In this document: positions 24,146 to 54,031 of the stretch, piece by piece | Position numbering within the stretch: position 1 is the stretch's first letter | Layout of the letters: each line of letters opens with the position of its first letter | DNA from: Burkholderiales bacterium | GTDB taxonomy: Bacteria > Pseudomonadota > Gammaproteobacteria > Burkholderiales > SG8-41 | DNA: 64,000 bases | Assembly: GCA_030683105.1 (NCBI GenBank) | Contig: JAUXMZ010000037.1 | Span: forward strand, 767-64,766 | Direction of reading: 5' to 3' | Translations under genes and position numbers: made by a program | Notes under the pieces: model-generated | What the model was told of the DNA's origin: nothing | The model's input: only the letters and a program-made list of their open reading frames with translations | Databases searched by the model: none

Positions 24146-26143
24146 CTATTTCTTCTTAAATTCAAAATGTTCGCGACGCGTACGTTGTTCTGGGGGCATA
24201 TATTTCAGAAATATCCCATCACTTTCAACCCGATTATTTTCCAGCAGGACACCTGACTCTGCGTCTTTATCGATACCGAATGGCTCTGACGCGACAAACA
24301 TATTGTTTCGCACAAGATTGTACTTCGGTGCAGCCGGTTCATCATCAATAATATTACTTAGGTGAGGATAGCGATCCGAATATGGCGCACGATTAAACGG
24401 CACCGAAGTTAATCGCTTTTGAAGCGTACCGTTGGGATCAAGTGCGCTTGCACGCGCCCAACCCAGGCCCCTTGCGTCAAGATGAATTGCCGGTGAGCTA
24501 AAATAGAACAAGTTGTTTTCCACCACATTATCTCTGCCACCACCAATAAATACCGGTTGCGAAACCCGAGCAAAAACGTTTCCACGAACCACGATTCCGC
24601 TCGCCATATCATCCAGATAGATACCCATCACTCCTTCTTTTGATTGAATCATTCCACCTATGTCATGAACGAAATTATCCTCAATGACCGTACCACGGGC
24701 AGTCCAGTCCCGGCCTGTATATATTGCGCCCGCGTCATCGGTTTCCAAAACGACTCTGGATATGTCATTGGACACAATCCGGTGATCGTTTCCCCAGAAC
24801 ATGATTGCGGCATGAGGTGCATCAGCGATCACATTGCCTTCTACTCTATTTCCGACACCTTCGATCGCGACTGCCGGTCGGTTGGTTCGGCCTAATCTGC
24901 TGAAACGTTGGATTTTGCTTTTTTCCACGAACAATCCGGCCGGTGTCAGTGTCTTTCGGTCTCCGCTATCTAATACGACGCCGCCCTCAGCTGTCTGATC
25001 GATCTCAACCTCTTTCAATCCGCTATTGCGCCCGCCGGAAATAACCATTGCTCGGTTGCCAACATTTCGAATGATGCAACGTTCAATCACTACGTTCTCG
25101 CTGTCCTTCAGCAGAATTGCATCACCACGTGCCTCTTCGAAAGTCAGATTTTCAACTCTCACGTTTTTTGCGGACTCAAAGCGCAGTAAAGTATCCGTTA
25201 CCGACACTTCCAAATCGCCATCCTTTACTTGTGCTAATGGCCAGAAATACAGAGTGGATGTCGTTCGGTCTAAGTACCATTCGCCTGGTTGATCCAACTC
25301 CGACAACGCATTCTGCACGCGAATTCTTTGCCCGGCGCGAATGCCACCACGTTTCGGTATAGCTCTCAATATGAGCACATTCATTGGGACATCAACCGCC
25401 TCCACACGAATCTCCTCGTCTGCCCAATCACGCGCAAAATATCCATAAGCTGATAGTTCCGGTTCGTCGGCCAGATCGATCAATGACTTACCATCCAGTC
25501 CGACGTAGCGCCCCATTCTCTCTTTGTCACGCGCAGTTGCAGGTATGTTGATGCGGGCAAATCCATCATTCGGCCACATGGCTATCGGCATCGGTTGCCC
25601 ACGAAAGAACAGCTCGGAGCGCGGAGCAATTGGATATCCGAAACCTCGTTCTATAGGGGAACCGAAAGATAAAACGAGCGTTTCGCTCAAGTGGATCGAT
25701 CCTACGTGGGATCGTGCCAGAACTGGCATTCGAGCTGGCATCTCACCGCCTTTAAGCTTGGTAAATCCACTCAGCACTTTTCCACCCGACAGAACCGCTG
25801 GTTCGCTCCCCTCTTGCTTGGGTCCGGTAATCGTAAGTCTCCCTACTGTTGCCTTGCCATTGCCCCAACGTATCAGCAGTGGAGCATCCAGCCGATACAC
25901 CCCGCCCTCAAGCATGATTCGAACATTCGGCATGTCACCCTCAATCTTCTGCCGCCATTCTCCACGATTGAGATAATTTATCGCTCCTTGCAAAGATAGC
26001 TTATCTAGGCATCGCACTCGAGTATCAGCGCACGGTATGGGAACATCGCCGCCATCGCGGGTCACCCTAAATTCCCAGTCCGAAGCCTCAGCGTATGAAA
26101 AAGAAAAGAGAAGGAATGATACTGAGACGAGTATGCGAAACAT
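24146..26143 (-). CDS. Secreted right-handed parallel beta-helix repeat protein (possible polysaccharide lyase/hydrolase)
   Basis: 665 aa. The signal peptide is MFRILVSVSFLLFSFSYAEA. Repeated PbH1-like turns are present (...NVVIERCIIRNVGNRAMVISGG..., ...HAAIMFWGNDHRIVSNDI..., ...GIVVRGNVFA...). Confidence 0.7.
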   Translation of the reverse strand: MFRILVSVSFLLFSFSYAEASDWEFRVTRDGGDVPIPCADTRVRCLDKLSLQGAINYLNRGEWRQKIEGDMPNVRIMLEGGVYRLDAPLLIRWGNGKATVGRLTITGPKQEGSEPAVLSGGKVLSGFTKLKGGEMPARMPVLARSHVGSIHLSETLVLSFGSPIERGFGYPIAPRSELFFRGQPMPIAMWPNDGFARINIPATARDKERMGRYVGLDGKSLIDLADEPELSAYGYFARDWADEEIRVEAVDVPMNVLILRAIPKRGGIRAGQRIRVQNALSELDQPGEWYLDRTTSTLYFWPLAQVKDGDLEVSVTDTLLRFESAKNVRVENLTFEEARGDAILLKDSENVVIERCIIRNVGNRAMVISGGRNSGLKEVEIDQTAEGGVVLDSGDRKTLTPAGLFVEKSKIQRFSRLGRTNRPAVAIEGVGNRVEGNVIADAPHAAIMFWGNDHRIVSNDISRVVLETDDAGAIYTGRDWTARGTVIEDNFVHDIGGMIQSKEGVMGIYLDDMASGIVVRGNVFARVSQPVFIGGGRDNVVENNLFYFSSPAIHLDARGLGWARASALDPNGTLQKRLTSVPFNRAPYSDRYPHLSNIIDDEPAAPKYNLVRNNMFVASEPFGIDKDAESGVLLENNRVESDGIFLKYMPPEQRTRREHFEFKKK

Positions 26144-34545: not shown

Positions 34546-35163
34546 CATCTTTGGCGAAGCGATGATGCCGCGGACCTGGATGCATGCCATCACAGTTGCC
34601 ACGCTCTCTTCCACCGACATGCTGACACTGTTGATGACGATTTCCGCGTTGTCCGGTTCTTCATAGGGCGAACTGATGCCGGTGAATTCCTTAATTTCGC
34701 CTGTACGTGCTTTGCTGTAGAGACCTTTAACGTCTCGCGCTTCGCACACTTCGATGGGGCAGCGGCAGTAGATTTCCACAAAGTCGGCGCCGACGAGACG
34801 ACGAACACGATCGCGGTCGGCGCGAAGGGGGGAGATAAATGCGCTGAGGACAATGATACCTGCATCTGCGAGGAGCTTGGTCATTTCCCCAATACGGCGG
34901 ATGTTTTCATGGCGATCCTCGATGGAAAAACCCAAGTCGCCGCACAGGCCATGGCGGACATTGTCGCCATCGAGAACGTAGGTGTGGCAGCCAAGTTGGT
35001 GCAGATGCTCTTCGACAGCGTGAGCGATAGTCGATTTTCCGGCGCCGGAAAGGCCGGTAAACCAGACTACGGCACCCTTGTGGCCGCTCAACTGCTCGCG
35101 ACGAGCGCGGGTCACGGTGGCGTGATGCCAGACAGTGTGAAAACTCCGGGGGCTATGGGTCAT
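34537..35163 (-). CDS. cysC: Adenylyl-sulfate (APS) kinase
   Basis: ORF 34537..35283 trimmed to the ATG at 35163, which overlaps the gmd stop (ATGA). It has the P-loop GLSGAGKST and ...[12 protein letters not shown]...ENIRRIGE...FISP.... Confidence 0.85.
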
Positions 35164-36296
35164 TCGTGATAATCCATGGCCTTGTAGCCATGGTGCTTGA
35201 CGAGTTCGTCGCGCTCGGCGGATTTGAGGTCTTCGCGGACCATTTCGGCGACGAGTTCGTCGAAGGTGGTCTTGGGCGTCCAACCTAACTTCTCGCGTGC
35301 TTTGGAAGCGTCACCCAATAGCGTCTCTACCTCTGTTGGCCTGTAATAGCGGGGATCAACGCGAACGATTATATTTCCGGTGATTGGTGATTCGTGATTA
35401 GTGATTGGTAAAGACTTGGCACTGAGTGCCGAGTCAAGAATGCCGATCTCGTTTACGCCCTCGCCTTCCCAGCGGATTTTCATGCCGAGTTCTTTCGCGG
35501 CGGCGTTGACGAAGTCGCGCACGCTGTATTGCACGCCGGTGGCGATGACGAAGTCTTCGGGTTTGTCCTGTTGCAACATTAGCCACTGCACCTCGACGTA
35601 GTCGCGGGCGTGGCCCCAGTCCCGTAACGAATTCATGTTGCCGAGGTAGAGGCAGTCTTGCAGGCCAAGTTTGATTCGGGCGAGTGCTCTGGTGATTTTG
35701 CGGGTGACGAAGGTTTCGCCGCGGACGGGGGACTCGTGGTTGAAGAGGATGCCGTTGCAGGCGTAGATGCCGTAGGCCTCGCGGTAGTTGACGGTGATCC
35801 AGTAGGCGTAAAGCTTGGCGACGGCATAGGGGCTGCGCGGGTAGAAAGGAGTGGTTTCCTTCTGGGGAGTCTCCTGAACGAGGCCGTAGAGTTCGGAGGT
35901 GCTGGCCTGGTAGAAGCGGGTTTTCTTTTCGAGGCCGAGGATGCGGATGGCTTCGAGCAGGCGCAGGGTGCCCATGCCGTCCACATCAGCGGTGTATTCG
36001 GGGGACTCAAAGCTGACCGCCACGTGAGACTGGGCGCCCAGGTTGTAAATTTCATCAGGCTGCGTTTCTTGCACGATGCGCACGAGGTTGCTGGTGTCGG
36101 TGAGGTCACCGTAATGCAGCTTGAAGCGCGCGTTCTGGATATGCGGGTCTTGGTAGATATGGTCTACCCGCTGAGTGTTAAACGAGCTGGCGCGCCGCTT
36201 GATGCCGTGGACGACGTACCCTTTGCCCAGCAAAAATTCGGCAAGATAGGCACCGTCCTGGCCGGTAATTCCTGTAATGAGCGCAACCTTTTGCAT
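35160..36296 (-). CDS. gmd: GDP-mannose 4,6-dehydratase
   Basis: 378 aa. [23 protein letters not shown]...YNLGAQSHV...ASTSELYG...[10 protein letters not shown].... It contains a heptamer-repeat-encoded loop (see 35379..35409). Confidence 0.9.
35379..35409. repeat. Heptamer tract inside the gmd coding sequence
   Basis: GGTGATT GGTGATT CGTGATT AGTGATT GGT on the plus strand. On the coding strand it is translated as ...[12 protein letters not shown].... Confidence 0.9.
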
Positions 36297-36321: not shown

Positions 36322-37257
36322 TCAGTTCAAAGTTGAAAGGTAGCTAGCATAAGCTTTAGCAATACCTTCTTTGAGTTGCGTTTTAGCTTTCCAGCCCAGG
36401 TTCGTCATCCTCGAAACATCCAGCAACTTTTGTGGAGTGCCATCAGGCTTGGTGCTATCAAACACGATTTTCCCCTTGAATCCGACGACATCCATAATAA
36501 TTTCAGCTAATTCCCGGATGGGAACGTCGGTTCCGATGCCAATGTTGTAGATGCCGTCGCCAATTCCTTGTTCCATCAGGAAAATGCAGGCATCCGCCAT
36601 ATCGTCGACGTAAAGGAACTCACGCCTCGGTGTACCGGTACCCCAGATAACGAGTTCACTTTTACCATTCTGTTTTGCCTCCAACGTCTTTCGAATGAGC
36701 GCGGGCAGCACATGACTATTCGCAAGATCGTAGTTGTCGTTGGGGCCGTAAAGATTATTAGGCATAACAGTAACGTATCGAGTACTGTATTGGTGGTTGC
36801 AGCTCTCGCAAGCTTTTAGCCCAGCGATCTTGGCGATAGCATAGGGTTCATTTGTCGGCTCCAGTGGGCTGGTAAGGAGGTATTCCTCTTTGATCGGCTG
36901 GGGACAGTCGCGCGGGTAAATGCAGCTCGAACCGAGAAAACAGAGATCCTTTACACCTGCTTTGAGAGCACCGAGGATAAGATTATTCTGGATGGTGAGG
37001 TTCTCTAAGATGAAGTCAGCGCGGTAGGTGTTATTGGCAAGGATGCCCCCCACTTTGGCAGCGGCGATGAAGATGTAATCGGGTTTTTCCAACTGAAGGA
37101 AATCAAAGGCGGCTCGCTGATCAAGGAGATCGAGTTCCTTCCTGGTTCGGGTAATTAAGCGAGTGTAATCGCCTTGCTGAAGTCGGCGCACCAGAGCGGA
37201 ACCGACCATGCCGCGATGGCCGGCGACGTAAATTTTAGCGTTCTTGCCAATGGTCAT
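36322..37257 (-). CDS. fcl: GDP-L-fucose synthase (GDP-4-keto-6-deoxymannose epimerase/reductase)
   Basis: 311 aa. ...[19 protein letters not shown]...AAKVGGI...GSSCIYP...YAIAKIAG.... Confidence 0.9.
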
Positions 37258-38729
37258 TACTTACTCCGACCGTAGTTATCTTCGAATCGAACGATATCGT
37301 CTTCGCCCAGATAGCTGCCCGACTGGACTTCGATCATCTCCAATGGGGTCTTGCCGGGGTTCTCCAGACGGTGAGCGGTGCCCAGTGAGATGTAGGTGGA
37401 TTGGTTCTCGGACAACAGGAATGTTTCTTCCCCACGAGTGACCTTGGCCGTACCCTTGACCACGATCCAATGCTCTGCACGGTGGTGGTGCATTTGCAAA
37501 CTAAGTTTGGCGCCGGGCTTGACAGTGATACGCTTGACCTGGAAGCGCTCGCCCACATCAACGCAATCGTATGCCCCCCATGGTCGGGCGGCGCGGCGGT
37601 GTTGCGTGGCTTGGGGAGCGCCGGTTGCCTCCAATTCAGCAACCACCGTCTTGACCAGCTCAGCATGGCTGCAGGCCGCAACCAGAAGTGCGTCCGGGCT
37701 GTCTATGATAAGGAGATCCCGGGTCCCCAGCGCGACCACGGGTCGATGTGGGGCATGGATGTAGGTATTGTTGGCTTGCACTGCCCTGCCTTGACCATGA
37801 ATGCGGTTGGCCATTTCATCGGCAGGGGTGAGCTCTGCCACGGCGTTCCAACTCCCCACGTCGCTCCACTGACCGGTAAAGGGCACCATGGCGACCTTGT
37901 CGTGATGCTCAAGCACGGCGTAATCGATGGAATCGCTTGGGCAGGCGGCAAAGGCCTCTGGGTCCAGCCGGATAAAGAGGCCGTCCTCGGTTTGCTGCGC
38001 CGTGGCCAGGCGGCAGGCCGTAAGGATGTCGGGGGCGTGCTGTTCAAGCGCCATGATGATGGTGCTGGCCTTGGCCAGGAAGATGCCGGCGTTCCAATAA
38101 TGACCGCCGGCCAGGAGAAGTTGCCGGGCGCTGTCGGCGTCCGGCTTTTCGATGAAGCGGGCGACATTGAAAACCGGTGGTTCGTGGTTCGTACCCGTCG
38201 AGCGGGTATTGAAAAGAATGCTTCGTTGGTCGTTGTTCGTTGATCGTGGATCGTGATTCACGACTTTTATGTATCCATAGGCAGTGCTGGGAAACGTGGG
38301 CAGCACCCCGAAGGTGACTATGTAACCCGCCTGGGCAGAAGGCACACCTTTCTGAATTGTGGCTGCAAACGCTTGTGCATCGGGAATATGGTGGTCTGCC
38401 GGAGCGAACAGCAAAAGCTGATCCGGCTGGGCATTGAGCGCCGCAACCGCCATAGCGGGTGCCGTGTTGCGGCCGACGGGTTCCAGTATGTGTCGCGCGC
38501 TGACGCCCGCGGCCTCTGCTGCCTCCTGCACGAGGAAGCGGTGCTCGTCGCTCGCCACGGTTTGCATCTGCGGCGAGATGTGCTTTACGCGCTCCAGCGT
38601 CAGTTGCAGCAAGCTTTTGCCATTGATCAGCGGCACGAATTGCTTGGGAAAAGCTTTGCGCGACAATGGCCACAGGCGCGTACCCGAGCCACCGCAAAGC
38701 AGGACAGGAAGGATGTTCGTCACACTCAT
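37257..38729 (-). CDS. manC: Mannose-1-phosphate guanylyltransferase / mannose-6-phosphate isomerase
   Basis: 490 aa. ...VLLCGGSGTRLWPLSR...GRNTAPA...WSDVGSW...QVKRITVKPGAKLSLQMHHHRAEHWIVVKGTA.... It contains an in-frame composite repeat (38176..38258). Confidence 0.9.
   Translation of the reverse strand: MSVTNILPVLLCGGSGTRLWPLSRKAFPKQFVPLINGKSLLQLTLERVKHISPQMQTVASDEHRFLVQEAAEAAGVSARHILEPVGRNTAPAMAVAALNAQPDQLLLFAPADHHIPDAQAFAATIQKGVPSAQAGYIVTFGVLPTFPSTAYGYIKVVNHDPRSTNNDQRSILFNTRSTGTNHEPPVFNVARFIEKPDADSARQLLLAGGHYWNAGIFLAKASTIIMALEQHAPDILTACRLATAQQTEDGLFIRLDPEAFAACPSDSIDYAVLEHHDKVAMVPFTGQWSDVGSWNAVAELTPADEMANRIHGQGRAVQANNTYIHAPHRPVVALGTRDLLIIDSPDALLVAACSHAELVKTVVAELEATGAPQATQHRRAARPWGAYDCVDVGERFQVKRITVKPGAKLSLQMHHHRAEHWIVVKGTAKVTRGEETFLLSENQSTYISLGTAHRLENPGKTPLEMIEVQSGSYLGEDDIVRFEDNYGRSK
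38176..38258. repeat. Composite repeat (heptamers + stem-loop + heptamers) inside the manC coding sequence
   Basis: GGTGGTT CGTGGTT C-GTACCCGTCGAGCGGGTAT-TGAAAAGAATGCTT CGTTGGT CGTTGTT CGTTGAT CGTGGAT CGTGATT. It is translated as NHDPRSTNNDQRSILFNTRSTGTNHEPP. The same composite is intergenic at 45494-45627 and 49576-49690. Confidence 0.9.
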
Positions 38730-38852
38730 GGTTCGTGATTGGTGTTAAGGGCGGTGATTAGTGTTAAGGGCGGTGATTAGTAACTAGAATCAGTGATTAG
38801 TGACTGGTAATTGGTGAATCAAACAACCGTGGCTCATTGATCGTGGTTCGTG
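38730..38852. repeat. Repeat island (heptamers plus two GTGTTAAGGGCGGTGATT boxes)
   Basis: It begins immediately after the manC start codon. K boxes start at about 38741 and 38760. Confidence 0.9.
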
Positions 38853-38858
38853 TCGCCA

Positions 38859-39368
38859 CTATCCTTCTCGTTTTTTTTCGGAGCGGAGGATGGCCATGCG
38901 CTTCGACACGGGTCGCGCTTCTCTGAGCAGGGTGTCCCAATCTTCGGGCGGATGGCCAGAATCGAGCATTTTGCGGAACACGCGATAGGCATCGTTGCTG
39001 CTCTCGTAGGCTCGTTTGGTGTCTTCGTCATTGACCCATGCGTAGACGATAATGCGTTGCGCCGCGTGGAACCGGAAAAACAATCGGTACTGCTGATAGA
39101 ACCTGGCGCGAAACCAGTGCTTGCGGTCGGCGCCCAGAGTATCGCCCTGACGGTATTCCGGACGCGTGGGATCTGCGGGGATGACTTCAAGCGCGAGCCT
39201 GGCGATCGCCGCCAGGCGCTTGGTGCTGTTTTTCTGCTTGTTGGTCTTGGGGTCCCTGGCCTTGAGGGCTTCAACCCTGGAGATCAGTTCTTCGACCTGG
39301 TGGAGAAACAAAGGATGGGCAAACAGGCTCCAGCCATTAACAATCAACGGGGCCTCCGGCAGACTCAT
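38859..39368 (-). CDS. yhaV: YhaV-family type II toxin (ribonuclease)
   Basis: 169 aa. ...NGWSLFAHPLFLHQVEELI...YRQGDTLGADRKHWFRARFYQQYRLFFRFHAAQRIIVYAWVNDEDTKRAY.... Confidence 0.8.
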   Translation of the reverse strand: MSLPEAPLIVNGWSLFAHPLFLHQVEELISRVEALKARDPKTNKQKNSTKRLAAIARLALEVIPADPTRPEYRQGDTLGADRKHWFRARFYQQYRLFFRFHAAQRIIVYAWVNDEDTKRAYESSNDAYRVFRKMLDSGHPPEDWDTLLREARPVSKRMAILRSEKKREG

Positions 39369-39688
39369 TCGTCTGCGGGATTCAGCGCGGCCTCGAGATC
39401 GACCTTGACCCCCTTGGTCAGAGCGCGCATGCGCTTGGCCAAATCGGTATCGATGGCGCGCAAATGCTGCGGATGTTCAGCGATATTCCGGGCCAGGAAA
39501 TCCAGAAAAGAGCCCAGAACCGGGTCGTCACTCTGTTCGGCACGCTGCAAAATCACGGAGCCGTTGCTCTGCACGACATAGCGAATGCGGTCGCGCTTGC
39601 CGAGCTTGAGCGCGCGACGCACGGCATCCGGCACGGTCGTTTGATAGCGATCGGTCAGCGTGGATTCGAGTTCAAAGGTAGCAGACAT
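39365..39688 (-). CDS. prlF: PrlF/SohA-type (AbrB-fold) antitoxin
   Basis: ORF trimmed to MSATFELESTLTDRYQTTVPDAVRRALKLGKRDRIRYVVQSNGSVIL.... An AGGAA lies 7 nt upstream, and the gene has a 4-nt overlap with yhaV. Confidence 0.8.
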   Translation of the reverse strand: MSATFELESTLTDRYQTTVPDAVRRALKLGKRDRIRYVVQSNGSVILQRAEQSDDPVLGSFLDFLARNIAEHPQHLRAIDTDLAKRMRALTKGVKVDLEAALNPADE

Positions 39689-39718
39689 GACCATTTCCTT
39701 TCTGAACAGATACAGAAG

Positions 39719-39744
39719 CATGGTAATGCACACGCATTACCATG
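39719..39744 (-). promoter_or_regulatory. Perfect palindrome upstream of prlF (candidate operator)
   Basis: CATGGTAATGC-ACAC-GCATTACCATG has 11-bp perfect arms and lies 31 nt upstream of the prlF start. Confidence 0.5.
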
Positions 39745-39780
39745 TCAATGTCGCTCAAAGGCCGGGGCGGGCTTACCCCA

Positions 39781-39960
39781 GTGATTAGTGATTGGTGATT
39801 AGTGATTGGCACCCGCCGGGTATTTGCTTTGCGGCATGGTTCGCACCCTCCGGGTATTTGCTTTGCGGCATGGTTTGTACCCGTCTAGCGCACCCCTCGA
39901 GGGGGTATTGAAAAGAAGGTATTAAAGTGAATGGGTCGTGGGTCGTGAGTCGTTGTTCGT
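39781..39960. repeat. Composite repeat island (heptamers, tandem P boxes, stem-loop modules)
   Basis: P boxes lie at 39812-39838 and 39846-39872, a 34-nt pitch. GTACCCGTCTAGCGCACCCCTCGAGGGGGTATTGAAAAGAAGGTATT and CGTGGGT CGTGAGT CGTTGTT units are also present. Confidence 0.9.
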
Positions 39961-40344
39961 CTATTGCTGTTCTTGTAAGCGCATTAGCAGTAGCTTTTGC
40001 TCCGGCAGGAAATGACTGAGACGGTCGTACACCGCTAATGCGTGCTTGGCATTGTATGTATGAGACATCCGATTCCTCGCCTCGAGCATTTCCAGCCAAG
40101 TCTCCTCGTCACTAATCCAGCCGAGGCTGAATGCTTGCTTTAAGCATGCCTTGGGAGATGCACATTCCGGCAAGCCTTGCGACAACGATGCGAGTTTGAT
40201 CGATTTCCATGCGAGTTCAAAGGAAAATTCAAAGTACTGGATGCATCCGGCCTTGATCAAATCGCTGTCTGCAGGCACCGATAAGGCGCTCTCCAGTTGT
40301 GACAGGGCTGTTTCATAATCCGCGAGGATCCAGTTCTCACTCAT
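39961..40344 (-). CDS. Nucleotidyltransferase substrate-binding protein, HI0074 family (HEPN-type toxin partner)
   Basis: MSENWILADYETALSQLESAL...IQYFEFSFELAWKSIK...ARNRMSHTYN.... It has an 8-nt overlap with the MNT gene. Confidence 0.75.
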   Translation of the reverse strand: MSENWILADYETALSQLESALSVPADSDLIKAGCIQYFEFSFELAWKSIKLASLSQGLPECASPKACLKQAFSLGWISDEETWLEMLEARNRMSHTYNAKHALAVYDRLSHFLPEQKLLLMRLQEQQ

Positions 40345-40651
40345 ATAAAACCTCAATGTGCTCCATTGCCCGTTCTCTGAATTCGGGATTGACTCGATTT
40401 AGATCCACCCAATCAATTTTATAAAGAGTGGGCAAATCGTCAAACGTGTCCTCTATCGCAAAAAATGTTTTCAAAGGCAGCGGTTCGTCACCATACGCGC
40501 CTACGTCGAAATCGGAGCGTGGGCGCGCTTTCCCGGTCGCTCGCGATCCAAACAGAAAAACCCGATGCCCTTTTAACTCGGTCTTATATCGGAGCAATTG
40601 CTGCTTGAGCATAGCCTTGATTTGTACGGCTCGTTGGTCGTTGGTCGGCAT
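40337..40651 (-). CDS. Minimal nucleotidyltransferase (MNT) domain protein
   Basis: 104 aa. ...VFLFGSRATGKARPRSDFDVGAY.... The first ~7 codons (MPTNDQR) are written in heptamer units. An alternative start is at MLKQQL. Confidence 0.75.
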   Translation of the reverse strand: MPTNDQRAVQIKAMLKQQLLRYKTELKGHRVFLFGSRATGKARPRSDFDVGAYGDEPLPLKTFFAIEDTFDDLPTLYKIDWVDLNRVNPEFRERAMEHIEVLYE

Positions 40652-40700
40652 TCGTTGTTCGTTGTTCGTTGTTCGTTGTTCGTGTTAAGGGCGGTGATTA
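40632..40700. repeat. Heptamer tract (CGTTGGT x2, TCGTTGT x4) plus K box
   Basis: It overlaps the MNT start codon at 40651. Confidence 0.9.
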
Positions 40701-40878
40701 GAACTCATCTCAAAAACCCCTCTACCCCGATTTTGGGGGAGAGGGCAGGGTGAGGGGGGCAGGAAAACATTGGCATATTGCACCGTGAAATTGACTGGCT
40801 TATTGCCCCTCTCCCCAACCCTCTGGCCCTAGGCCACCCCGTCCCCATCAGTGCGGGGAGAGGGAGTATTTTTGAGAC
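40701..40878. repeat. GC-rich CCCCTCT...AGAGGG hairpin repeats in an inverted pair enclosing only ~44 bp
   Basis: GAACTCATCTCAAAAACCCCTCTACCCCGATTTTGGGGGAGAGGGCAGGGTGAGGGG ... CCCCTCTCCCCAACCCTCT...GCGGGGAGAGGGAGTATTTTTGAGAC. The same family occurs at 51578-51665, 52581-52665 and around the DUF559 gene. Confidence 0.8.
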
Positions 40879-40898
40879 ACGCTCTAGTAACTGGCGGC

Positions 40899-41228
40899 CT
40901 AGAGTTCCAGCACCGTGCGCAAGCTCTGCTCTACGGCCGCCATCTCCGCGCGGTTGAGTTTTCCCAAGGTTGCGCCGATTCGAGATTTATCGACCGCACG
41001 GATCTGATCGATCCGCGCATTCGAATTCGCGCCGGCCGAAGGCACGGATACTACGAGCGGTGGCCGAGGCGTACTGCTGCTCGAAAGTGGAACCACCACC
41101 ACCGTGAGCCGCTTGTCGTTGAGTACCGAGCGGGACACGATGACGCAAGGCCGCTGTTTCCTGATCTCCGCTCCTACCGTGGGATCCAGGTTGACCCACA
41201 CCACGTCACCGCGCTCGAGGCTTTTCAT
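40899..41228 (-). CDS. mazF: MazF/PemK-family type II toxin
   Basis: ORF trimmed to MKSLERGDVVWVNLDPTVGAEIRKQRPCVIVS...VVVVPLSS.... Confidence 0.75.
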   Translation of the reverse strand: MKSLERGDVVWVNLDPTVGAEIRKQRPCVIVSRSVLNDKRLTVVVVPLSSSSTPRPPLVVSVPSAGANSNARIDQIRAVDKSRIGATLGKLNRAEMAAVEQSLRTVLEL

Positions 41229-41478
41229 TCGCAGCATGTTCTTCCATGCCATCGCCTATGGTCGCCTCCCAGTCGCGCATCTCCTGCGCGAGCTCAGGAT
41301 TGCGCAGTTCCTCGTCGGTGACGGCAGCGGCGATCCGGGTCAGTTCGTCCTCTTGGCGCGCGACCGCTTTTGCCACCAGATCGGCAATGAACTTATTGCG
41401 CTGGCGCGCGGGAACTGCCGCTTTGAACCGGGCGGCGACGTCTTCGGGGAGCCTGATCAAGATTTGTTGGGTTGACAT
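41206..41478 (-). CDS. Ribbon-helix-helix antitoxin
   Basis: 90 aa. MSTQQILIRLPEDVAARFKAAVPARQRNKFIADLVAKAV.... It overlaps the MazF-like gene. Confidence 0.6.
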   Translation of the reverse strand: MSTQQILIRLPEDVAARFKAAVPARQRNKFIADLVAKAVARQEDELTRIAAAVTDEELRNPELAQEMRDWEATIGDGMEEHAANEKPRAR

Positions 41479-41514
41479 ATTCCATGCCTCATTTGCCTTG
41501 CTCTATTTTAACAA

Positions 41515-41531
41515 TTGATATCATATATCAA
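41515..41531 (-). promoter_or_regulatory. Palindrome upstream of the RHH antitoxin (candidate operator)
   Basis: TTGATAT-CAT-ATATCAA is nested in an outer CCTTGC...GCAAGG symmetry, about 40 nt upstream of the start at 41478. Confidence 0.4.
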
Positions 41532-41717
41532 TAGGCAAGGTACACCACATCATAACTAATGGCCAACAAAATCATCGCGCTAGGTCGAGGTTCGCAGGCC
41601 GTTGTTCGTTGTTCGTGTTAAGGGCAGTAATCCATATTATGGATAGTTGTAAAGCCCGCAGCTTCTGCGGCAGGCGTAACCCAATTTCTGCCACTGGTCG
41701 CGGCCGGGGCGCCGCCG

Positions 41718-42929
41718 CTATCTGCCCAGGAGATAGCGGCGCAGGAGGTCCAGCCGTGCGGCTTGCTCGGGATTTTGGCGGGCTTTTTGGCCGGCCTCCT
41801 TAATAAATGCCCATATGACGGCCAGGAAGCCTGCCACAAGGGCGGTCAGTATCACGATAAGCGCGCGTTTGGGACTGGACCTGCGATCAGGTTCGATGGC
41901 CTTATCCATGACCTGGATGATGGAGGAATCCTTGGCTTCGTCGATCTTGGCAAGCCCATACTGCTGCGCGAGCAGTTCGTAGACCGTTTCGTTGTACTTC
42001 AGATCGCGCAACAGACCCAGGTTGTCGATGCCTTCGCTATTGGTTTTCTGAGCATCTTCAGGTTTGCCAGCGGCACCCTCTATTTTCGCAAGCTGGCGTT
42101 TCATCGCTTCCAGCTCCTGCTGTGCCATCAACAGGTCAGGGTTGCGCTCGGCGGCAAAGGTTCGCATGGCGCCGATCTGCACTTCCTTGACGGTGATCTG
42201 TGCCCGCAATCGGGCGCTGCTTTCCGCCATGCTGCGGCCCTGGCCTTCGACCTGGACGAGGCCGCCTTTTTCCAGCGCCTGCCGGGCAGTCGCTTCGGAT
42301 TTGGTGAGATTGACCTTGGCCTGCTCCAACTGGCGTTCGAAAAACAGGCGACGCTGGGCGGCTTCGGTCACTGCCAGCACATTGGTCAGTTTATCGAGCT
42401 CCTCCACATAGGCATTGGCGAGGGTGGCCGCGCGCTTTGGATCCTTGTCGTCCACGGCGATGGAAATTATGCCGTCCTTGCCGGAGGTGATCGTCGACAC
42501 GTTCTCCAGTTGTTTACGGGTGTGGGATTGGTATTCCTTCCCGTAAAGCTTGTTCAGATCGAAGCGCTGGATCAGGTTGTCCGCCACAGTACGGCTCTTG
42601 AGCATAGCGACGTACATGTCGTTGGGGTTCTTGATGCCAGCCACTCCGCCAGCCAACCCGGCAACGGCGCCGAGCTGGTTCAGCATGGCGGAAGCGGTCG
42701 ACTGGCTTTGCTGCGGCGGCAGGATCTTCGTCGTCGCCGTGAAGATAGGGGTCATCAGCAAGCTGACGATCACGGCGAGAACCGCGGCCAGGAAGGGAAG
42801 GCCGAGGATTAGCTTCTTATGCTTCGCCAGGACGATGGCGAGATCAATAAGATTGATCTCGTCATCGTCTGGTGGCTCAACACTTGTGATTGGTGATTGG
42901 TGATTGGTGATTAGTGATTCTTCGCTCAT
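41718..42929 (-). CDS. Wzz/chain-length-determinant family protein (no kinase domain)
   Basis: 403 aa. It has an N-terminal TM (LILGLPFLAAVLAVIVSLLM), a long coiled-coil periplasmic part and a C-terminal TM (ALIVILTALVAGFLAVIWAFI). Residues 5-16 ([12 protein letters not shown]) are encoded by heptamer units. Confidence 0.75.
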   Translation of the reverse strand: MSEESLITNHQSPITSVEPPDDDEINLIDLAIVLAKHKKLILGLPFLAAVLAVIVSLLMTPIFTATTKILPPQQSQSTASAMLNQLGAVAGLAGGVAGIKNPNDMYVAMLKSRTVADNLIQRFDLNKLYGKEYQSHTRKQLENVSTITSGKDGIISIAVDDKDPKRAATLANAYVEELDKLTNVLAVTEAAQRRLFFERQLEQAKVNLTKSEATARQALEKGGLVQVEGQGRSMAESSARLRAQITVKEVQIGAMRTFAAERNPDLLMAQQELEAMKRQLAKIEGAAGKPEDAQKTNSEGIDNLGLLRDLKYNETVYELLAQQYGLAKIDEAKDSSIIQVMDKAIEPDRRSSPKRALIVILTALVAGFLAVIWAFIKEAGQKARQNPEQAARLDLLRRYLLGR

Positions 42930-43051
42930 GATTGGTGATTAGCGTTAAAAACAGTGATTGGCGAACGGCGGTGATTGGTAACTAGAACCAGTGATTAGTA
43001 ATTAGTAATTGGTGTTAAGGGCAGTGATTAGTAACTGGTAATTAGTGATTA
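42883..43051. repeat. Repeat island spanning the wzz-like start codon
   Basis: TTGTGAT TGGTGAT x3 TAGTGAT lies at 42884-42918, inside the CDS. Heptamers and K-box variants then run up to 43051. Confidence 0.9.
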
Positions 43052-43736
43052 GCAAGGCTTGGTGTTGGTTAGCGCGGCTGAGCACCCTATCGTCGTCAGC
43101 GCCAGGCTCCATTTCGGCAACGTAATCCACCTCGTGGCCGTCTTCCCGGAGCCGCAGCACAATCGGCCTGTCAACGCCTTCGTGAAGAGTCCCTAACATA
43201 GTGAAACACGTGTGCGTTGCGAGTCAAAATTGGTGATGACGCGAAGGATGGCGCAGAGCATATCGCGAATATGGTCAAGCCGGCCGACAAAGTGTCCCGT
43301 GCAGGGCGGAGCAGGTTCCAAGTGTTCTATGCTTGGATGCGACCCCGGAGCGGGACGAAAGCGCGCCATCATGTACGGGCCTAATGCACGCCTGCGCGGT
43401 CGCATCCCCGCAAGCGGGGCCCCTGCTCCACGCTTCGGCGCGCCGCCGATTTTGATCGCAACCCTTCGGGCTGACACGAGTTTTGGCCTGTCGCCCCCGG
43501 CTCTCGGCGAGCGCAGCTTTGGGGCGGAGACGGGGGCCGGGGGGTGCCGCAACTCCCGCAACCGGGGCTTGGGCGCCGTTCCCGCAAACGGGCCTGCGGC
43601 AAACGAGTCACGGCGCCCCCTTGTCGCTCCCCTTGCCCATATTCGCGATATGGCCTGCGGAAAGCTTCGCGTCCTGAGCCAAAATCGTGCCAGCGCATCT
43701 CGCGTTTCACTATGTTAGGGACTCAAAGAGCTTCAC
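43002..43736 (-). pseudogene. DUF5615 (PIN-like) toxin gene, interrupted by a MITE and 3'-truncated by heptamer repeats
   Basis: The GTG at 43736 overlaps the DUF433 stop. Deleting 43187-43724 plus one AA restores GTG AAG CTC TTT CAC GAA GGC... = MKLFHEGVDRPIVLRLREDGHEVDYVAEMEPGADDDRVL.... After ~50 codons the frame runs into repeats (...ALLITNYQLLITALNTNY*). Confidence 0.7.
43187..43724. mobile_element. MITE-like non-autonomous element (538 bp) with 21-bp perfect terminal inverted repeats
   Basis: GAGTCCCTAACATAGTGAAAC lies at 43187-43207 and its reverse complement at 43704-43724. The imperfect IR extends to ~95 bp and includes CATATCGCGAATATGG in both arms. The element is flanked by AA/AA and has three CCCGCAANCGGG hairpins inside. 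Confidence 0.8.
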
Positions 43737-43969
43737 GCAGCCTTATCGGCAATCGGATAGATCACATCCCCTCGAAGTGCTTGCGCAGCAAATTCGAGTG
43801 CCGCCAATATGTCGTCTTGTTTCAGGCGCGGATGCGCTTCCAGGATTTGCTCCGTAGACTCCCCGTGCGCGAGTTTTTCCAGGATGCTTTCCACGGTAAT
43901 ACGGGTGCCAGCAATAACCGGTTTACCCATCATCACAGTCGGATTGGATTCAATATGTGCTTGATTCAT
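43733..43969 (-). CDS. DUF433 antitoxin-like protein
   Basis: MNQAHIESNPTVMMGKPVIAGTRITVESILEKLAHGESTEQILEAHPRLKQDDILAALEFA.... Confidence 0.75.
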   Translation of the reverse strand: MNQAHIESNPTVMMGKPVIAGTRITVESILEKLAHGESTEQILEAHPRLKQDDILAALEFAAQALRGDVIYPIADKAA

Positions 43970-44043
43970 ATAGACCTCCGTAGAATTATTATTATACACA
44001 CCCTACTCGACAGCCTTGGGGCGCGGCTTAATGGCCGTGACTG

Positions 44044-44087
44044 GTGTCAAAAAACAGTGATTAGTGATTAGTGATTGGTGATTAGTA
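44044..44087. repeat. Heptamer tract with K-box variant
   Basis: GTGTCAAAAAACAGTGATTAGTGATTAGTGATTGGTGATTAG. Confidence 0.9.
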
Positions 44088-44091
44088 GTCA

Positions 44092-44412
44092 TCAACTGCC
44101 AGCCTGGCTTTTTATGGAGCGGATCAGGCCTTGAAGCATTTTCGATATTGTTTCCAGATGATTCTGTAATTCGTCAAGTTTGCGGCTATCACCTAATCCT
44201 ATTTTTCTTGATATCTCGATCTGCGTATCCAGTTCACTGGCCGAACCCAGGGCAATGTAGAGGAACTGCAGAAATTCCTTGTTGCCTTGCCGCGCTGCGC
44301 CTTCCGCGATGTTGCTCGCGATCGAGACAGCACTTCGTTTCATTTGGCTGACAATACCGTATTGCTCGTCCTTCGGATATGCCTTGGTCAGTTCGTAGGT
44401 GTCCCGTGCCAA
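44092..44412 (-). pseudogene. Four-helix-bundle protein (23S rRNA IVS-protein family), N-terminally truncated copy
   Basis: ...ARDTYELTKAYPKDEQYGIVSQMKRSAVSIASNIAEGAARQGNKEFLQFLYIALGSASELDTQIEISRKIG.... It lacks the first ~16 residues of the neighbouring paralogue. The upstream end is a repeat tract. Confidence 0.6.
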
Positions 44413-44448
44413 AGGCAGTGATTAGTGATTAGTAACTGGTGATTGGTA
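44405..44448. repeat. Heptamer tract with K-box variant
   Basis: CGTGCCAAAGGCAGTGATTAGTGATTAGTAACTGGTGATTGG. Confidence 0.9.
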
Positions 44449-44452
44449 GCCA

Positions 44453-44818
44453 TCAACTGCTAGCCTGGCTCTTTACGGAGCGGATCAGGCCCTGAATCAT
44501 TTTCGATATCGATTCCAAATTCTCTTGCACTTCAAGAAGCTCCTTGGTGTCCCCTAAGCCTATTTCCCTTGACACCTCGATTTGTGTATCTAACTCGCTT
44601 GCCGAACCAAGAGCAATGTACAAAAACTGTATAAATTCCTTGTTGCCCTGCCGTGCCGCGCCTTCAGCTATGTTGCTAACCACCGACACGGCGGCGCGGC
44701 GCATTTGGGAAGCCAAACCATACATTTCCTCTTTAGGATAGCCGTTCGTGGCATGGTATACCGCTTTGACCAACTGGATACCGTGTTTCCAGACTTCTAG
44801 GTCTTTGTGCGATTTCAT
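44453..44818 (-). CDS. Four-helix-bundle protein (23S rRNA IVS-protein family)
   Basis: 121 aa. MKSHKDLEVWKHGIQLVKAVYHATNGYPKEEMYGLASQMRRAAVSVVSNIAEGAARQGNKEFIQFLYIALGSASELDTQIEVS.... Confidence 0.8.
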   Translation of the reverse strand: MKSHKDLEVWKHGIQLVKAVYHATNGYPKEEMYGLASQMRRAAVSVVSNIAEGAARQGNKEFIQFLYIALGSASELDTQIEVSREIGLGDTKELLEVQENLESISKMIQGLIRSVKSQASS

Positions 44819-44822
44819 AAAT

Positions 44823-44937
44823 CGGTGATTGGTGTTAAGGGCGGTGACTGGTGACTGGTGATTGGTGATTAGTGACTGGTAATTGGTGAATCAACAACCG
44901 TGGCTAGTGGTTCGCGGATCGGGGGTCGTTGGTCGTG
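44823..44937. repeat. Repeat island (K box, GTGACTG/GTGATTG units, CGTTGGT units)
   Basis: It overlaps the 3' end of the parE pseudogene, whose tail ...NRTTNDPRSANH* is repeat-encoded. Confidence 0.9.
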
Positions 44938-45219
44938 CGGTTCTTCCAGTAACCTGGCCTTCTGCTAGTGTGGGCGATTGCTACAACGAGGAATTCGTCG
45001 CGGTACTCAAGGTAAATGATTGCATAGGGGAACCGGTTGGTCACGCCGCATCCGATTCCCGATAGATCTCCCTGAGGCCGGAAACTGCTGAACAAATTGG
45101 GTTGCCTTCACGAACTCCGAGAGGAACGCTGCGCCAAGTCCAACCTGCCGTTCATCATAGAACCCAGCCGTCTCAACCAGTTCGACATCAGCCTCCGCCG
45201 ACAGCCGTACCGGCTTCAC
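44904..45219 (-). pseudogene. parE: ParE/RelE-family toxin gene with a 1-nt frameshift
   Basis: Frame A reads MKPVRLSAEADVELVETAGFYDERQVGLGAAFLSEFVKATQFVQQFPASGRSIGNRMRR.... Frame B reads ...VTNRFPYAIIYLEYRDEFLVVAIAHTSRRPGYWKNR. The two join around 45040-45046. Confidence 0.7.
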
Positions 45220-51671: not shown

Positions 51672-52184
51672 TTACGCGGCGGCTAACAGCCAGTCGCGGT
51701 CGACTTTCAGGCGGTTCATTTTGCCCAGCATCTCTAGCAGGACGATCACCCGCTCTTCGCCGGTTTCCTGGCTGAATACGCCTTCCAGGCCGGTGAACGG
51801 GCCGTCCACGAATTTCACCGTCGCGCCGGGCTGGAACACCGTGCGCTGCAAGTGCATCCCGGCGGCAGCGTCCTGCCGCGCCCGCAGTTCTTCAATCAAT
51901 GCATCCGGCACCACCGCCGGTTGCCCGCCGAACCTGACCAGGCCAGAGACGCCGAAAGTAGAGCGCACCGGGGCCAGGCTTTGCGTCTCATCCCGCGGCC
52001 TGAGAAACAGATACCTTGGAAACAGCGGCTCGATCCGTTCCACCCATTTGCCCAGGCGCCGGTGCCGGCCCATCAGGCGCGGCAGGTAGACCGCATAGCC
52101 CTGGTTCTCAAGATGAGTCACTGCAAGCTCTTCGCCGCGGGGCTTGCAGAATACGATATACCATTGATTATCATGGTTTTTCAA
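51672..52184 (-). CDS. rfaH: RfaH/NusG-paralogue transcription antiterminator
   Basis: 170 aa. ...WYIVFCKPRGEELAVTHLENQGYAVYLP...EPLFPRYLFL...VKFVDGPFTGLEGVFS (NGN + KOW). Confidence 0.8.
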   Translation of the reverse strand: MKNHDNQWYIVFCKPRGEELAVTHLENQGYAVYLPRLMGRHRRLGKWVERIEPLFPRYLFLRPRDETQSLAPVRSTFGVSGLVRFGGQPAVVPDALIEELRARQDAAAGMHLQRTVFQPGATVKFVDGPFTGLEGVFSQETGEERVIVLLEMLGKMNRLKVDRDWLLAAA

Positions 52185-52189
52185 TGTAA

Positions 52190-52504
52190 TCAGCCCTCCA
52201 CTTCCCGCTTCAGTTCTTCGATCTCGTGCTTCAGCGCATCGTATTCCGCCATCTTGCGCCGCAGAAAATTCACGGTAAGCGTTGCTTTTTGCTCGATGCC
52301 GCTCGGAGTAAGCAGATAGGCATAGCTGAGTTTGTCGCGGTTGTTGCGGAAATTGCGCGCCTTGATCCAGCCCTTTTCGATCAGCGCGGCGAGGCAGTAA
52401 TTGATTTTGCCCAAGCTGACGCCCAGCTCACGCGCCAGTTCCCGCTGGCTCAGGTTAGGCTGTACCTCGAGCAACTTGAGTAATCGGTAGTGCGATTCGT
52501 CCAT
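52190..52504 (-). CDS. MarR-family EPS-associated transcriptional regulator
   Basis: 104 aa. MDESHYRLLKLLEVQPNLSQRELARELGVSLGKINYCLAALIEKGWIKARNF...YLLTPSGIEQK.... Confidence 0.8.
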   Translation of the reverse strand: MDESHYRLLKLLEVQPNLSQRELARELGVSLGKINYCLAALIEKGWIKARNFRNNRDKLSYAYLLTPSGIEQKATLTVNFLRRKMAEYDALKHEIEELKREVEG

Positions 52505-52520
52505 AGCAGCAGGTCTTGCT

Positions 52521-52584
52521 AGTGATTGGTGATTGGTGATTGGTGATTAGTGTTAAGGGCAGTGATTGGTAACTAGTGATTAGA
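52521..52584. repeat. Heptamer tract plus K box
   Basis: AGTGATT GGTGATT GGTGATT GGTGATT AGTGTTAAGGGCAGTGATTGGTAACTAGTGATTAG. Confidence 0.9.
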
Positions 52585-52665
52585 ACTCATCTCAAAATCC
52601 CCTCTCCCCCCGTGCTCAGGGGGACCTCGGTGCCGCTCGACGGTAGAGGGCAGGGTGAGGGGGCA
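52581..52665. repeat. GC-rich hairpin repeat, right member of the inverted pair bracketing marR-rfaH
   Basis: GAACTCATCTCAAAATCCCCTCTCCCCCCGTGCTCAGGGGGACCTCGGTGCCGCTCGACGGTAGAGGGCAGGGTGAGGGGGCAG. It has the same 5' leader as the copy at 40701. Confidence 0.85.
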
Positions 52666-52832
52666 GTAGTGCGGGAATCCCTTCCCGCCGAGGTGTCGGC
52701 AAGGATTGCCGACCTACGCTATGGGGCAGCATCTCCAGCAACTCTCGTTTAGCGGCAAAATTACTGGCTTACCCTCTTGTACATGGCCTGTTCAATCGTT
52801 GAACGGTGATTCAAACAAATCCCAGGGAGAAT

Positions 52833-52871
52833 GTCAAATTAAATGGGCCCCGAGGACCGGGGGCATTTAAT
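52833..52871 (+). repeat. 38-bp GC-hairpin repeat, copy 1 (direct repeat flanking the phd-PIN module)
   Basis: GTCAAATTAAATGGGCCCCGAGGACCGGGGGCATTTAAT. Confidence 0.85.
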
Positions 52872-53017
52872 CAGTAATTGGTGATTAGTGATTGGCACCC
52901 TCCGGGTATTTGCTTTGCGGCATGATTGGTGTCAAAGGCCGTGGTTCGTACCCGTCAAGCGAGTGTTGAAAAGAAGGTATTGAAAGGAAGGTATTGTGAA
53001 GAATGGGTCGTGCGTGG
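52872..53017. repeat. Composite repeat island (heptamers, P box, stem-loop module)
   Basis: The P box lies at 52898-52924. GTACCCGTCAAGCGAGTGTTGAAAAGAAGGTATTGAAAGGAAGGTATTGTGAAGAATGGGTCGTGCGTGG ends at the PIN gene stop. Confidence 0.9.
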
Positions 53018-53449
53018 TTATCTAGCGGGGGCGATCACGTTGAATCCCTCCCGCTGCACTGCGGCCGTAAGCCGCTCATCCAGGCACACAAAATCAAGGG
53101 AGGAAGGCCGGTGGTCGCTCGCCAGGATCGCCGCAGCCAGTTGCAGCGAATCGGCAACGCGAAGATTATGCACGCGCAACAAGCGTATTGCTGTTTCCTT
53201 AAGCGCCTCGACCGGCTGCACCTCTTGCCATCCGGATGTCAGCGCCCGCAAACGCGTCAACGCCTCTGCAAGAGAATCCGGCGATATTGCGCCCTGCCGC
53301 TCAAGACGCGCCAATGCGGAAATGCATTCCACACCAGTACCCCACCAAGCGATTATCAATGGGTCTTCCCGGTACAAGTCAACGACGAAGGAAGTAGCCG
53401 GCTCCTCTGCCAGAAGCGGGACAATCGCGGAACTGTCCCAGAACTTCAC
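53018..53449 (-). CDS. vapC: PIN-domain toxin
   Basis: GTG at 53449 overlaps the antitoxin stop (GTGA). It reads VKFWDSSAIVPLLAEEPATS...VADSLQLAAAILAS...FVCLDERL.... Confidence 0.7.
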   Translation of the reverse strand: MKFWDSSAIVPLLAEEPATSFVVDLYREDPLIIAWWGTGVECISALARLERQGAISPDSLAEALTRLRALTSGWQEVQPVEALKETAIRLLRVHNLRVADSLQLAAAILASDHRPSSLDFVCLDERLTAAVQREGFNVIAPAR

Positions 53450-53745
53450 CGGCTTTCGTCGCGTTCGGAAAACAGTGCCTGAAGGATACTCGCCCCCTCC
53501 TTGACCTTGGGCGGGCGCTTCTCCCAAAGCAGGTTCGAGGGTTTGCTGCTCGCGCGCCGAATGATCCCGTTGCGCTCAAGGTGCGCCAGGCATCCTTTGA
53601 GATCAGCTTGATCGTCATTGCCGACAGGCTCCAGCCGCGCCACTGGACGATCCCGATCCGTGATAAGTATGGTTTCACCGTGACGCACTTTATCAAGCAG
53701 TGCGCTCAATTGGTTTTTTGTTTCGGTTATTGAGGCTATTTTCAT
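53446..53745 (-). CDS. phd: Phd/YefM-type antitoxin
   Basis: 99 aa. MKIASITETKNQLSALLDKVRHGETILITDRDRPVARLEPV.... Confidence 0.75.
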   Translation of the reverse strand: MKIASITETKNQLSALLDKVRHGETILITDRDRPVARLEPVGNDDQADLKGCLAHLERNGIIRRASSKPSNLLWEKRPPKVKEGASILQALFSERDESR

Positions 53746-53775
53746 AAAGCTATAATAGCCTTTTGCTGAAAGGCC

Positions 53776-53813
53776 GTCAAATTAAATGGCCCCGAGAGCC
53801 GGGGGCATTTAAT
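53776..53813 (+). repeat. 38-bp GC-hairpin repeat, copy 2
   Basis: GTCAAATTAAATGGCCCCGAGAGCCGGGGGCATTTAAT, in the same orientation as copy 1. Confidence 0.85.
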
Positions 53814-53814
53814 T

Positions 53815-54031
53815 CGTGGGGCGTGGCTTAAAACCAGTGATTAGTGACTCAAGAACAGTGATTGGTGAATCAACAACCGTGATTGGTGATTAGTGATTGG
53901 TGATTGGCGAATCGTGGCTTAAAACCAGTGACAGTTACTGGTGATTAGTGATTGGTGAATCAAACCCAGTGCCTGGTAATTTGGTTTAAACGACCAACCA
54001 CTAATCACTAATCACTAATTACCAATCACGG
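53815..54031. repeat. Long heptamer/K-box-variant island ending in a reverse-oriented tract
   Basis: GGCTTAAAACCAGTGATTAG occurs twice. GTGATTG/GTGATTA units follow, then CCACTAATCACTAATCACTAATTACCAATCACGG abuts the export-protein stop. Confidence 0.9.

Follow-up and report, generated by a model that had tools for sequence, protein, structure and literature searches.

A dispersed heptamer and hairpin repeat in place of a native loop of ManC in an uncultured Burkholderiales bacterium

A mosaic repeat within the manC reading frame

The locus described here raises the question of how a complete copy of a dispersed repeat, otherwise encountered between genes, can lie in frame within a conserved metabolic gene, and of what this means for the enzyme that carries it. 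The gene is manC, found in a stretch of 64,000 nucleotides (contig JAUXMZ010000037.1) from an uncultured Burkholderiales bacterium, the whole of which is referred to below as the window. The repeat copy (about 83 nt, 38179-38261) was found to replace a native loop of the protein, and we consider it, with a probability of roughly three in four, to be a tolerated passenger, selfish or neutral, that came through purifying selection, and not an adapted feature. The gene, the modules of its repeat and the two intergenic composites used for comparison are as follows.

37257-38729, minus strand: manC, an open reading frame (ORF) of 490 amino acids encoding a bifunctional mannose-1-phosphate guanylyltransferase / mannose-6-phosphate isomerase, host of the repeat
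38179-38192, plus strand: two perfect GGTTCGT heptamers (ACGAACC ACGAACC on the coding strand, translated within TNHEP)
38191-38209, plus strand: hairpin module GTACCCG-TCGAG-CGGGTAT, with a 6-bp stem and a 5-nt loop
38210-38226, plus strand: spacer module TGAAAAGAATGCTTCGT, which comes after the hairpin in the family consensus
38227-38261, plus strand: five degenerate heptamers (TGGTCGT TGTTCGT TGATCGT GGATCGT GATTCAC), with the minus-strand translation VNHDPRSTNNDQ
45494-45627, plus strand: intergenic reference composite with two hairpin cores and flanking heptamers
49576-49690, plus strand: intergenic composite, followed by GGTTCGT x5

An earlier reading of this DNA from the sequence only had proposed that the composite seen between genes at the last two of these positions also occurs complete inside manC, and this was borne out by comparison with shuffled sequence. 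The 36-nt core of the manC repeat has three matches in the window against 0.00 expected, recurring at 45509 (3 mismatches) and 45563 (1 mismatch), while the 15-nt hairpin has eight (0.13 expected), seven of them outside manC, and double heptamers of the GGTTCGT type have 48 (0.36 expected). This observation was further strengthened by an alignment with seven intergenic copies, in which the manC copy equals the family consensus across the heptamer-hairpin-spacer block. The heptamers on both sides of the hairpin share one orientation, and no inverted-repeat pair of at least 8 nt was detected in 38150-38290. Folding of the composite was not better than that of shuffles for either RNA (z = −0.8) or DNA (z = −0.6), so that "stem-loop" in this context means the 6-bp hairpin only.

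The minus-strand translation of 38175-38258 runs without a stop in the manC frame as NHDPRSTNNDQRSILFNTRSTGTNHEPP, between GYGYI and FNVARFIEKP, in agreement with the earlier proposal on both counts. In manC the strand opposite to that of the consensus is the one translated, giving SILFNTRSTG for the core, and the peptides predicted from the loop include STNNDQR, SILFNTR and STGTNHEPPVFNVAR. The inserted peptide is strongly hydrophilic, with a mean Kyte-Doolittle hydropathy of −1.81 against −0.16 for ManC as a whole. A phmmer search with the 34-residue loop, a short query, against 1.84 billion representative proteins (clusters at 50% identity) returned no hits. Selection for translatability was considered and rejected, given that the consensus composite is open in five of six frames, yet 11.5% of composition-matched shuffles equal that.

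Replacement of the native loop and its place in the structure

The manC product is a 100% match to NCBI MDP2240462.1, which is labelled as a metagenome-assembled genome (MAG) entry, "MAG: Burkholderiales bacterium." Every Pfam domain is present as a single stretch: NTP_transferase (PF00483) at residues 8-304 (E = 3e-40), ManC_GMP_beta-helix (PF22640) at 317-366, MannoseP_isomer (PF01050) at 373-484 (E = 4e-57), and Cupin_2 at 401-468. In an alignment of 120 sequences, ManC keeps all invariant columns of the family, among them LCGGSGTRLWPLS at residues 11-23 (the GGxGxRLWPLS signature) and F192-E194-K195-P196 (the F-x-EKP motif) as well as Q412, H414, R417, A418, E419, H420, and W421 of the isomerase motif QxHxHRAEHW, and the motifs on either side of the repeat are thus intact, as had been claimed. 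By its domain content (nucleotidyltransferase, beta-helix linker, and C-terminal cupin isomerase domain), the protein is assigned to the type II bifunctional PMI-GMP enzymes (ManC/CpsB/AlgA-type). The frame is open across all 490 codons, and comparison with a sister gene on a related contig (L001) gives a dN/dS of 0.10 on each side of the loop at a dS of 0.24.

The DNA alignment with this sister gene defines the altered segment.

38166-38268, minus strand: 103-nt segment for residues 155-188, KVVNHDPRSTNNDQRSILFNTRSTGTNHEPPVFN, which the sister gene lacks

At this position the sister has 37 unrelated nucleotides encoding QQGKKRDEHSHT, and the flanks of the two genes can be aligned up to GGATACAT and again from GTCGCC. 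Because 103 nt stand against 37 nt without similarity, the native loop was replaced and not extended by a clean insertion of 28 codons. The sequence-only reading of a 28-residue in-frame loop holds in that the repeat is present, but the net gain is 66 nt (22 amino acids), and the native 12-residue loop has been lost as well. Flank duplication is not visible when the site is compared with that of the sister, which is not the exact pre-insertion allele. Microhomology between the native loop DNA of the sister and the manC repeat was also considered and was rejected, as no similarity was found (p = 0.54).

The figure of about a dozen residues here, given in the sequence-only reading for enterobacterial ManC/CpsB, proved accurate, in that the stretch from I154 to V189 measures 12-14 residues in 109 of the 120 homologues, compared with 34 in the ManC of the window. 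Across the remaining 119 homologues the loop does not exceed 24 residues, and the segment is absent from close orthologues. Four sister proteins (P0002 and P0121-P0123) are about 95% identical to ManC outside the loop, and all four have the conserved 12-residue QQGKKRDEHSHT. No relative closer than the P0002 cluster was found in a set of 5.8 billion proteins, and when JGI metagenome contigs were scanned for an empty-site allele or a nearer manC relative, nothing exceeded 66% identity.

The same comparison bears on whether the presence of the repeat in manC is an error of metagenome assembly. The sequence comes from a MAG contig with an abundant repeat family, and repeats can lead short-read assemblers to mis-join; however, both flanks are manC in the correct order, orientation, and frame, which would be rare for a mis-join, and the native loop is missing and not duplicated. 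Comparable intragenic repeats are moreover present in independent assemblies (L001 from JGI and L031 from NCBI), and an artefact of this kind is barely credible.

AlphaFold2 models place the segment at the tip of a beta-hairpin and not in the catalytic core, which answers the structural question that the sequence-only reading had left to modelling. In the sister enzyme this is a tight hairpin (strand 153-159, turn 160-164, and strand 165-171) with a block-mean pLDDT of 94-96. In the model of the window ManC (overall pLDDT 89.1, pTM 0.87), strands 153-156 and 187-193 are kept, residues 161-170 and 172-181 fall below a pLDDT of 50, and the remainder is confident. Foldseek gives TM-scores of 0.86-0.89 between this model and the solved GDP-mannose pyrophosphorylases 2cu2, 2x65, 2x5s, and 2qh5, and alignments of ManC with PDB sequences break at the repeat site, between chain residues 154 and 158 of 2x5s. 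The predicted structures thus show the repeat replacing the distal part of the hairpin, with the rest of the fold intact. The F-x-EKP motif, which binds substrate in the nucleotidyltransferase fold, lies intact at the returning strand's far end; the homologue alignment indicates that hairpin length at this site is already variable in the family.

Probable tolerance of the repeat and competing explanations

In the course of events that we favor, manC would have received, probably recently, one copy of a mosaic repeat that is dispersed and non-autonomous. In the nucleotidyltransferase domain, this copy would have displaced the DNA encoding the distal part of a beta-hairpin that is exposed to solvent, probably through recombination or template switching with another copy and not by cut-and-paste, a route favored because terminal inverted repeats and a clear target duplication are both absent. 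Translation of the repeat would most likely give the enzyme a surface loop of about 28 residues, hydrophilic and disordered, which it tolerates while remaining active. Since the length change of +66 nt is a multiple of three and the orientation and frame are stop-free, manC still reads through, and the survival of the copy may be explained by these two properties together with a site that accepts variable disordered sequence. With a core one base from the copy at 45563 and a close fit to the consensus, the insertion probably took place long after the sister lineage had split off.

Several points weigh against this account. The dN/dS of manC mostly records the time before the insertion and says little about the period since, a limit that follows from the repeat's continued fit to the family consensus. 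The gene is represented by one allele from a short-read MAG. In the models, about half of a well-ordered hairpin is removed, and not just extended, and the insertion could impair the enzyme. Such damage would make manC an inactivated or crippled early pseudogene, or would leave a second manC elsewhere in the genome to provide the activity. This explanation fits with a confidently predicted hairpin having lost its distal part, and a repeat that equals the consensus has had little time for visible decay, in a period that the dN/dS of 0.10 is unable to resolve. Against this stand the intact 490-codon frame with its invariant residues and domains, the natural range of the loop from 12 to 24 residues among homologues, and the confident modelling of the remaining fold; similar translated repeats in gmd, fcl, and DnaE2 are also hard to reconcile with each of them abolishing function. 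We regard a damaging insertion as unlikely.

These further translated repeats lie in the window and in related contigs.

35378-35409, minus strand: NAATCAC x4 array in gmd (35160-36296), read as an 11-residue peptide, the second translated repeat of the operon
L001 6502-6533, plus strand: perfect GCACTCA x4.6 array in an fcl-like gene (L001 5978-6910), read as HSALSTQHSA
L031 4846-7998, plus strand: DnaE2/PolIII-alpha-like gene on contig JBBPIT010000010.1 of a related MAG

The repeat in the neighbouring gmd (GDP-mannose 4,6-dehydratase) occupies a variable loop that exceeds its counterparts in the gmd of the sister contig, in 7kf3, and in E. coli 1db3 by 17, 16, and 8 residues, respectively. 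The array in the fcl-like gene of L001 amounts to an insertion of about 8 residues relative to the fcl of the window, which is without it. In the DnaE2 of L031, the hairpin core lies in frame in the PHP domain and is read as KGTRRAGIEKK on the consensus strand, so that DnaE2 and manC read the core on a different strand and in a different frame; in the HHH region of the same gene lie two period-7 arrays, GAGGCGA and CGCCTCA, each complementary to the other, and an HDIHDIHDIHD/YGSYGSYG stretch comes ahead of the polymerase core. This DnaE2 is the only Pfam-validated gene to contain a core copy among 92 copies in 564 kb of related loci (1/92), from which it follows that coding insertions of the core are rare survivors and not the rule. 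Nine further long stop-to-stop ORFs over core copies in the related loci were rejected, as they have no Pfam domain and look non-coding or antisense, and the core copies of L037 and L068 lie upstream of probable starts. A double heptamer at 24584-24597 in a gene for a beta-helix protein was likewise set aside as a chance match, being read as native GIVVRG. On L001, an ACTCAGC heptamer array at 4291-4370 supplies the called N-terminus of gmd, MPSKLSTQHPAPTTEPSALSTQHS, and the start was probably mis-called owing to this stop-free repeat.

Translated repeats in manC, gmd, and fcl, which belong to one pathway and to two lineages, together with the presence of repeats in the manC leader, could point to co-option, for instance of the new loop, as a surface of ManC for interaction or regulation, or of a hairpin in the mRNA, as a modulator of its translation or stability in the operon. 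The peptide, however, is predicted to be disordered, and the use of the other strand and frame of the core in DnaE2 leaves no conserved peptide. Neither the fold of the composite RNA nor its freedom from stops departs from shuffled sequence, as given above, and the sister lineages are without the repeat loop, all of which makes co-option quite improbable.

The heptamer tract might alternatively act as a slippage-prone contingency switch, in which the gain or loss of one 7-nt unit, 7 not being a multiple of three, would shift the frame and toggle GDP-mannose synthesis and surface polysaccharide. The gene lies in a surface-polysaccharide cluster with Wzz and Wza, phase variation by slippage of longer simple-sequence repeats has been discussed (PMC4679880), and the perfect 7-nt tract within the fcl coding sequence of L001 is itself a candidate frameshift switch. 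In manC, by contrast, just two perfect ACGAACC units are present and the other five heptamers all differ, which suppresses slippage, and no length variants were seen in the one available allele. For manC, a switch is accordingly very improbable, and we return to a tolerated passenger as the preferred explanation. The wider proposal that the mosaic repeats of this uncultured Burkholderiales clade systematically colonize surface loops of housekeeping and polysaccharide enzymes (manC, gmd, fcl, and dnaE2), as a free-living counterpart of Rickettsia palindromic elements (RPEs) whose 7-nt units could also make slippage on/off switches, is unlikely.

The repeat system and its relation to known elements

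The mosaics of the window are assembled from GGTTCGT-type and GTGATTR-type heptamer arrays, the hairpin with its spacer, a 23-nt module and a 19-nt module; module sequences of the system include ACCCGTCRAGCGGGT, CCGGGTATTTGCTTTGCGGCATG, and GTGTTAAGGGCGGTGATTA. There are 18 period-7 arrays in the window, 2 of them inside real genes, and triple units of NAATCAC have 30 matches against 0 expected. Hairpins of the window are single or in direct duplicates. The positions of the two fixed modules and of the manC leader are as follows.

1102, 3765, 6635, 6729, 39816, 39850, 47856, 47890, 49433, 49500, 49553, and 52902: 23-nt module CCGGGTATTTGCTTTGCGGCATG
38742-38779, 40682, 43012, 44832, 47776, 47816, 49460, and 52550: 19-nt module GTGTTAAGGGCGGTGATTA
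38730-38860, plus strand: manC 5' leader, largely repeat modules (heptamers and two GTGTTAAGGGCGGTGATTA units), with a heptamer abutting the ATG

The 12 copies of the 23-nt module have zero mismatches, a perfect conservation that points to a functional site or to spread in very recent times, and the 9 copies of the 19-nt module are usually joined to GTGATTR heptamer arrays. A heptamer of the CACGAxC type abuts the manC ATG in both lineages (window 38730-38860; L001 about 1480-1607), and an obvious Shine-Dalgarno sequence is absent from both leaders. The repeat modules crowd a toxin-antitoxin-rich island at 38.8-54 kb, between manC and a Wza-like exporter of the polysaccharide cluster, with genes for YhaV/PrlF, HEPN-like/MNT, MqsA, two PIN, MazE-like, and two 23S_rRNA_IVP proteins (38800-54000), and nearly all gaps of this island hold mosaic repeats. 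The minus-strand polysaccharide operon (7100-38729) is tightly packed with almost no intergenic repeats, and the only two repeat copies detected in it are those inside the gmd and manC coding sequences.

Beyond the window, the hairpin module recurs in GTDB contigs, where more than 88 stretches contain it, and most of these carry the label of uncultured MAGs of betaproteobacterial or Burkholderiales origin. It was also seen in MAGs labelled Streptomycetaceae, Desulforhopalus, and Nevskiaceae (L012-L014 and others, CAYIRZ01; L022/L060, WTAT01; L040, JBBIVG01), labels that probably reflect mislabelling or bin contamination and not the true distribution. No Rfam family matched anywhere in the window, and the repeat sequences were not found in any paper of the literature library searched.

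The closest behavioral parallel is with the RPEs, which the sequence-only reading had named. As summarised in one account, RPEs (Ogata et al. 2000) measure about 100-150 bp, each family encodes a conserved peptide, and nearly half of the elements in three of ten families lie in ORFs (PMC10969869). As with RPEs, a dispersed short repeat lies in frame in a conserved metabolic gene at a site compatible with the fold, adding a peptide and keeping the ORF, and more than one such insertion is seen, in several genes of the lineage that are unrelated to each other. The manC element differs in its size (about 83 nt) and in its 7-nt tandem units around a 6-bp hairpin, being not palindromic over its length; manC and DnaE2 read its core from opposite strands and in different frames, with no family peptide, and its host is a free-living uncultured Burkholderiales bacterium and not an obligate intracellular alphaproteobacterium. 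Core copies in a validated gene are also far rarer, at about 1/92, than the nearly half described for three RPE families. The comparison thus stands for the behavior of in-frame insertion into genes and fails for family membership: by size, palindromy, and conserved peptide, the manC repeat is not an RPE.

A second parallel lies in the heptamer direct repeats of the TAACTGA type in Beggiatoaceae and cyanobacteria, whose arrays are translated in ORFs, mostly at protein termini (MacGregor 2015, PMC4679880). Here too, tandem heptamers are abundant between genes, often just before start codons, and are sometimes translated in a stop-free orientation; the gmd NAATCAC array obeys the TAACTGA-type orientation rule, and the heptamer at the manC ATG resembles the start-proximal arrays of Beggiatoaceae. 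The arrays of the window are over-represented and mainly intergenic with stop-free orientations and, in these respects, belong with heptanucleotide tandem repeats (LSSR / STRR / TAACTGA-type). They differ in sequence (GGTTCGT and GTGATTR), in being combined with the hairpin and other fixed modules into mosaics, and, in manC, in replacing an internal hairpin of a catalytic domain and not lying at a terminus.

Small intergenic repeats with open frames that are fused in frame in annotated genes are likewise described for enterobacteria (RU-1/ERIC, RU-2, and RU-3; Delihas 2007, PMC2759123) and, for MITEs (miniature transposable elements with inverted repeats) in genes generally, in PMC10969869. 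The enterobacterial units are MITE-like, 103-168 bp long and with inverted termini, whereas the manC repeat is flanked by direct heptamers with no evident target-site duplication and, because it has no inverted termini, is not a MITE. With precedents in PMC4679880 and PMC2759123, the earlier statement that heptamer-type repeats were not known to insert within genes was too strong. The hairpin module is a short, multi-copy, mainly extragenic palindrome, as REP/REPIN elements are. Cyanobacterial small dispersed repeats, short hairpin-forming modules in mosaics, were reportedly described by Elhai and colleagues in 2008. Like the REP/REPIN elements associated with RAYT transposases (PMC3116915), the module is very short, dispersed, mostly extragenic, and built into larger mosaics; the manC hairpin, unlike them, is single, not an inverted doublet, and lies inside a gene. 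No transposase turned up in the annotated part of the window, where RAYT was not searched for, and the hairpin is best described as REP-like, with membership in REP/REPIN not established.

Small repeats within genes and the translation of heptamer arrays are therefore already published, and a description of this repeat family and lineage was not found in the literature library searched. With the manC repeat, "selfish DNA in protein-coding genes," for which obligate intracellular Rickettsia are the best-known case, is extended to an environmental betaproteobacterial lineage that is free-living and to a different kind of element, a mosaic of heptamer arrays and hairpin. Such insertions lengthen proteins and yield spurious low-complexity segments and mis-called starts in the annotation of MAGs. 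The manC, gmd, and fcl genes of one pathway, together with DnaE2, present natural experiments on the tolerance of enzyme loops for foreign disordered sequence and on the origin of new loops.

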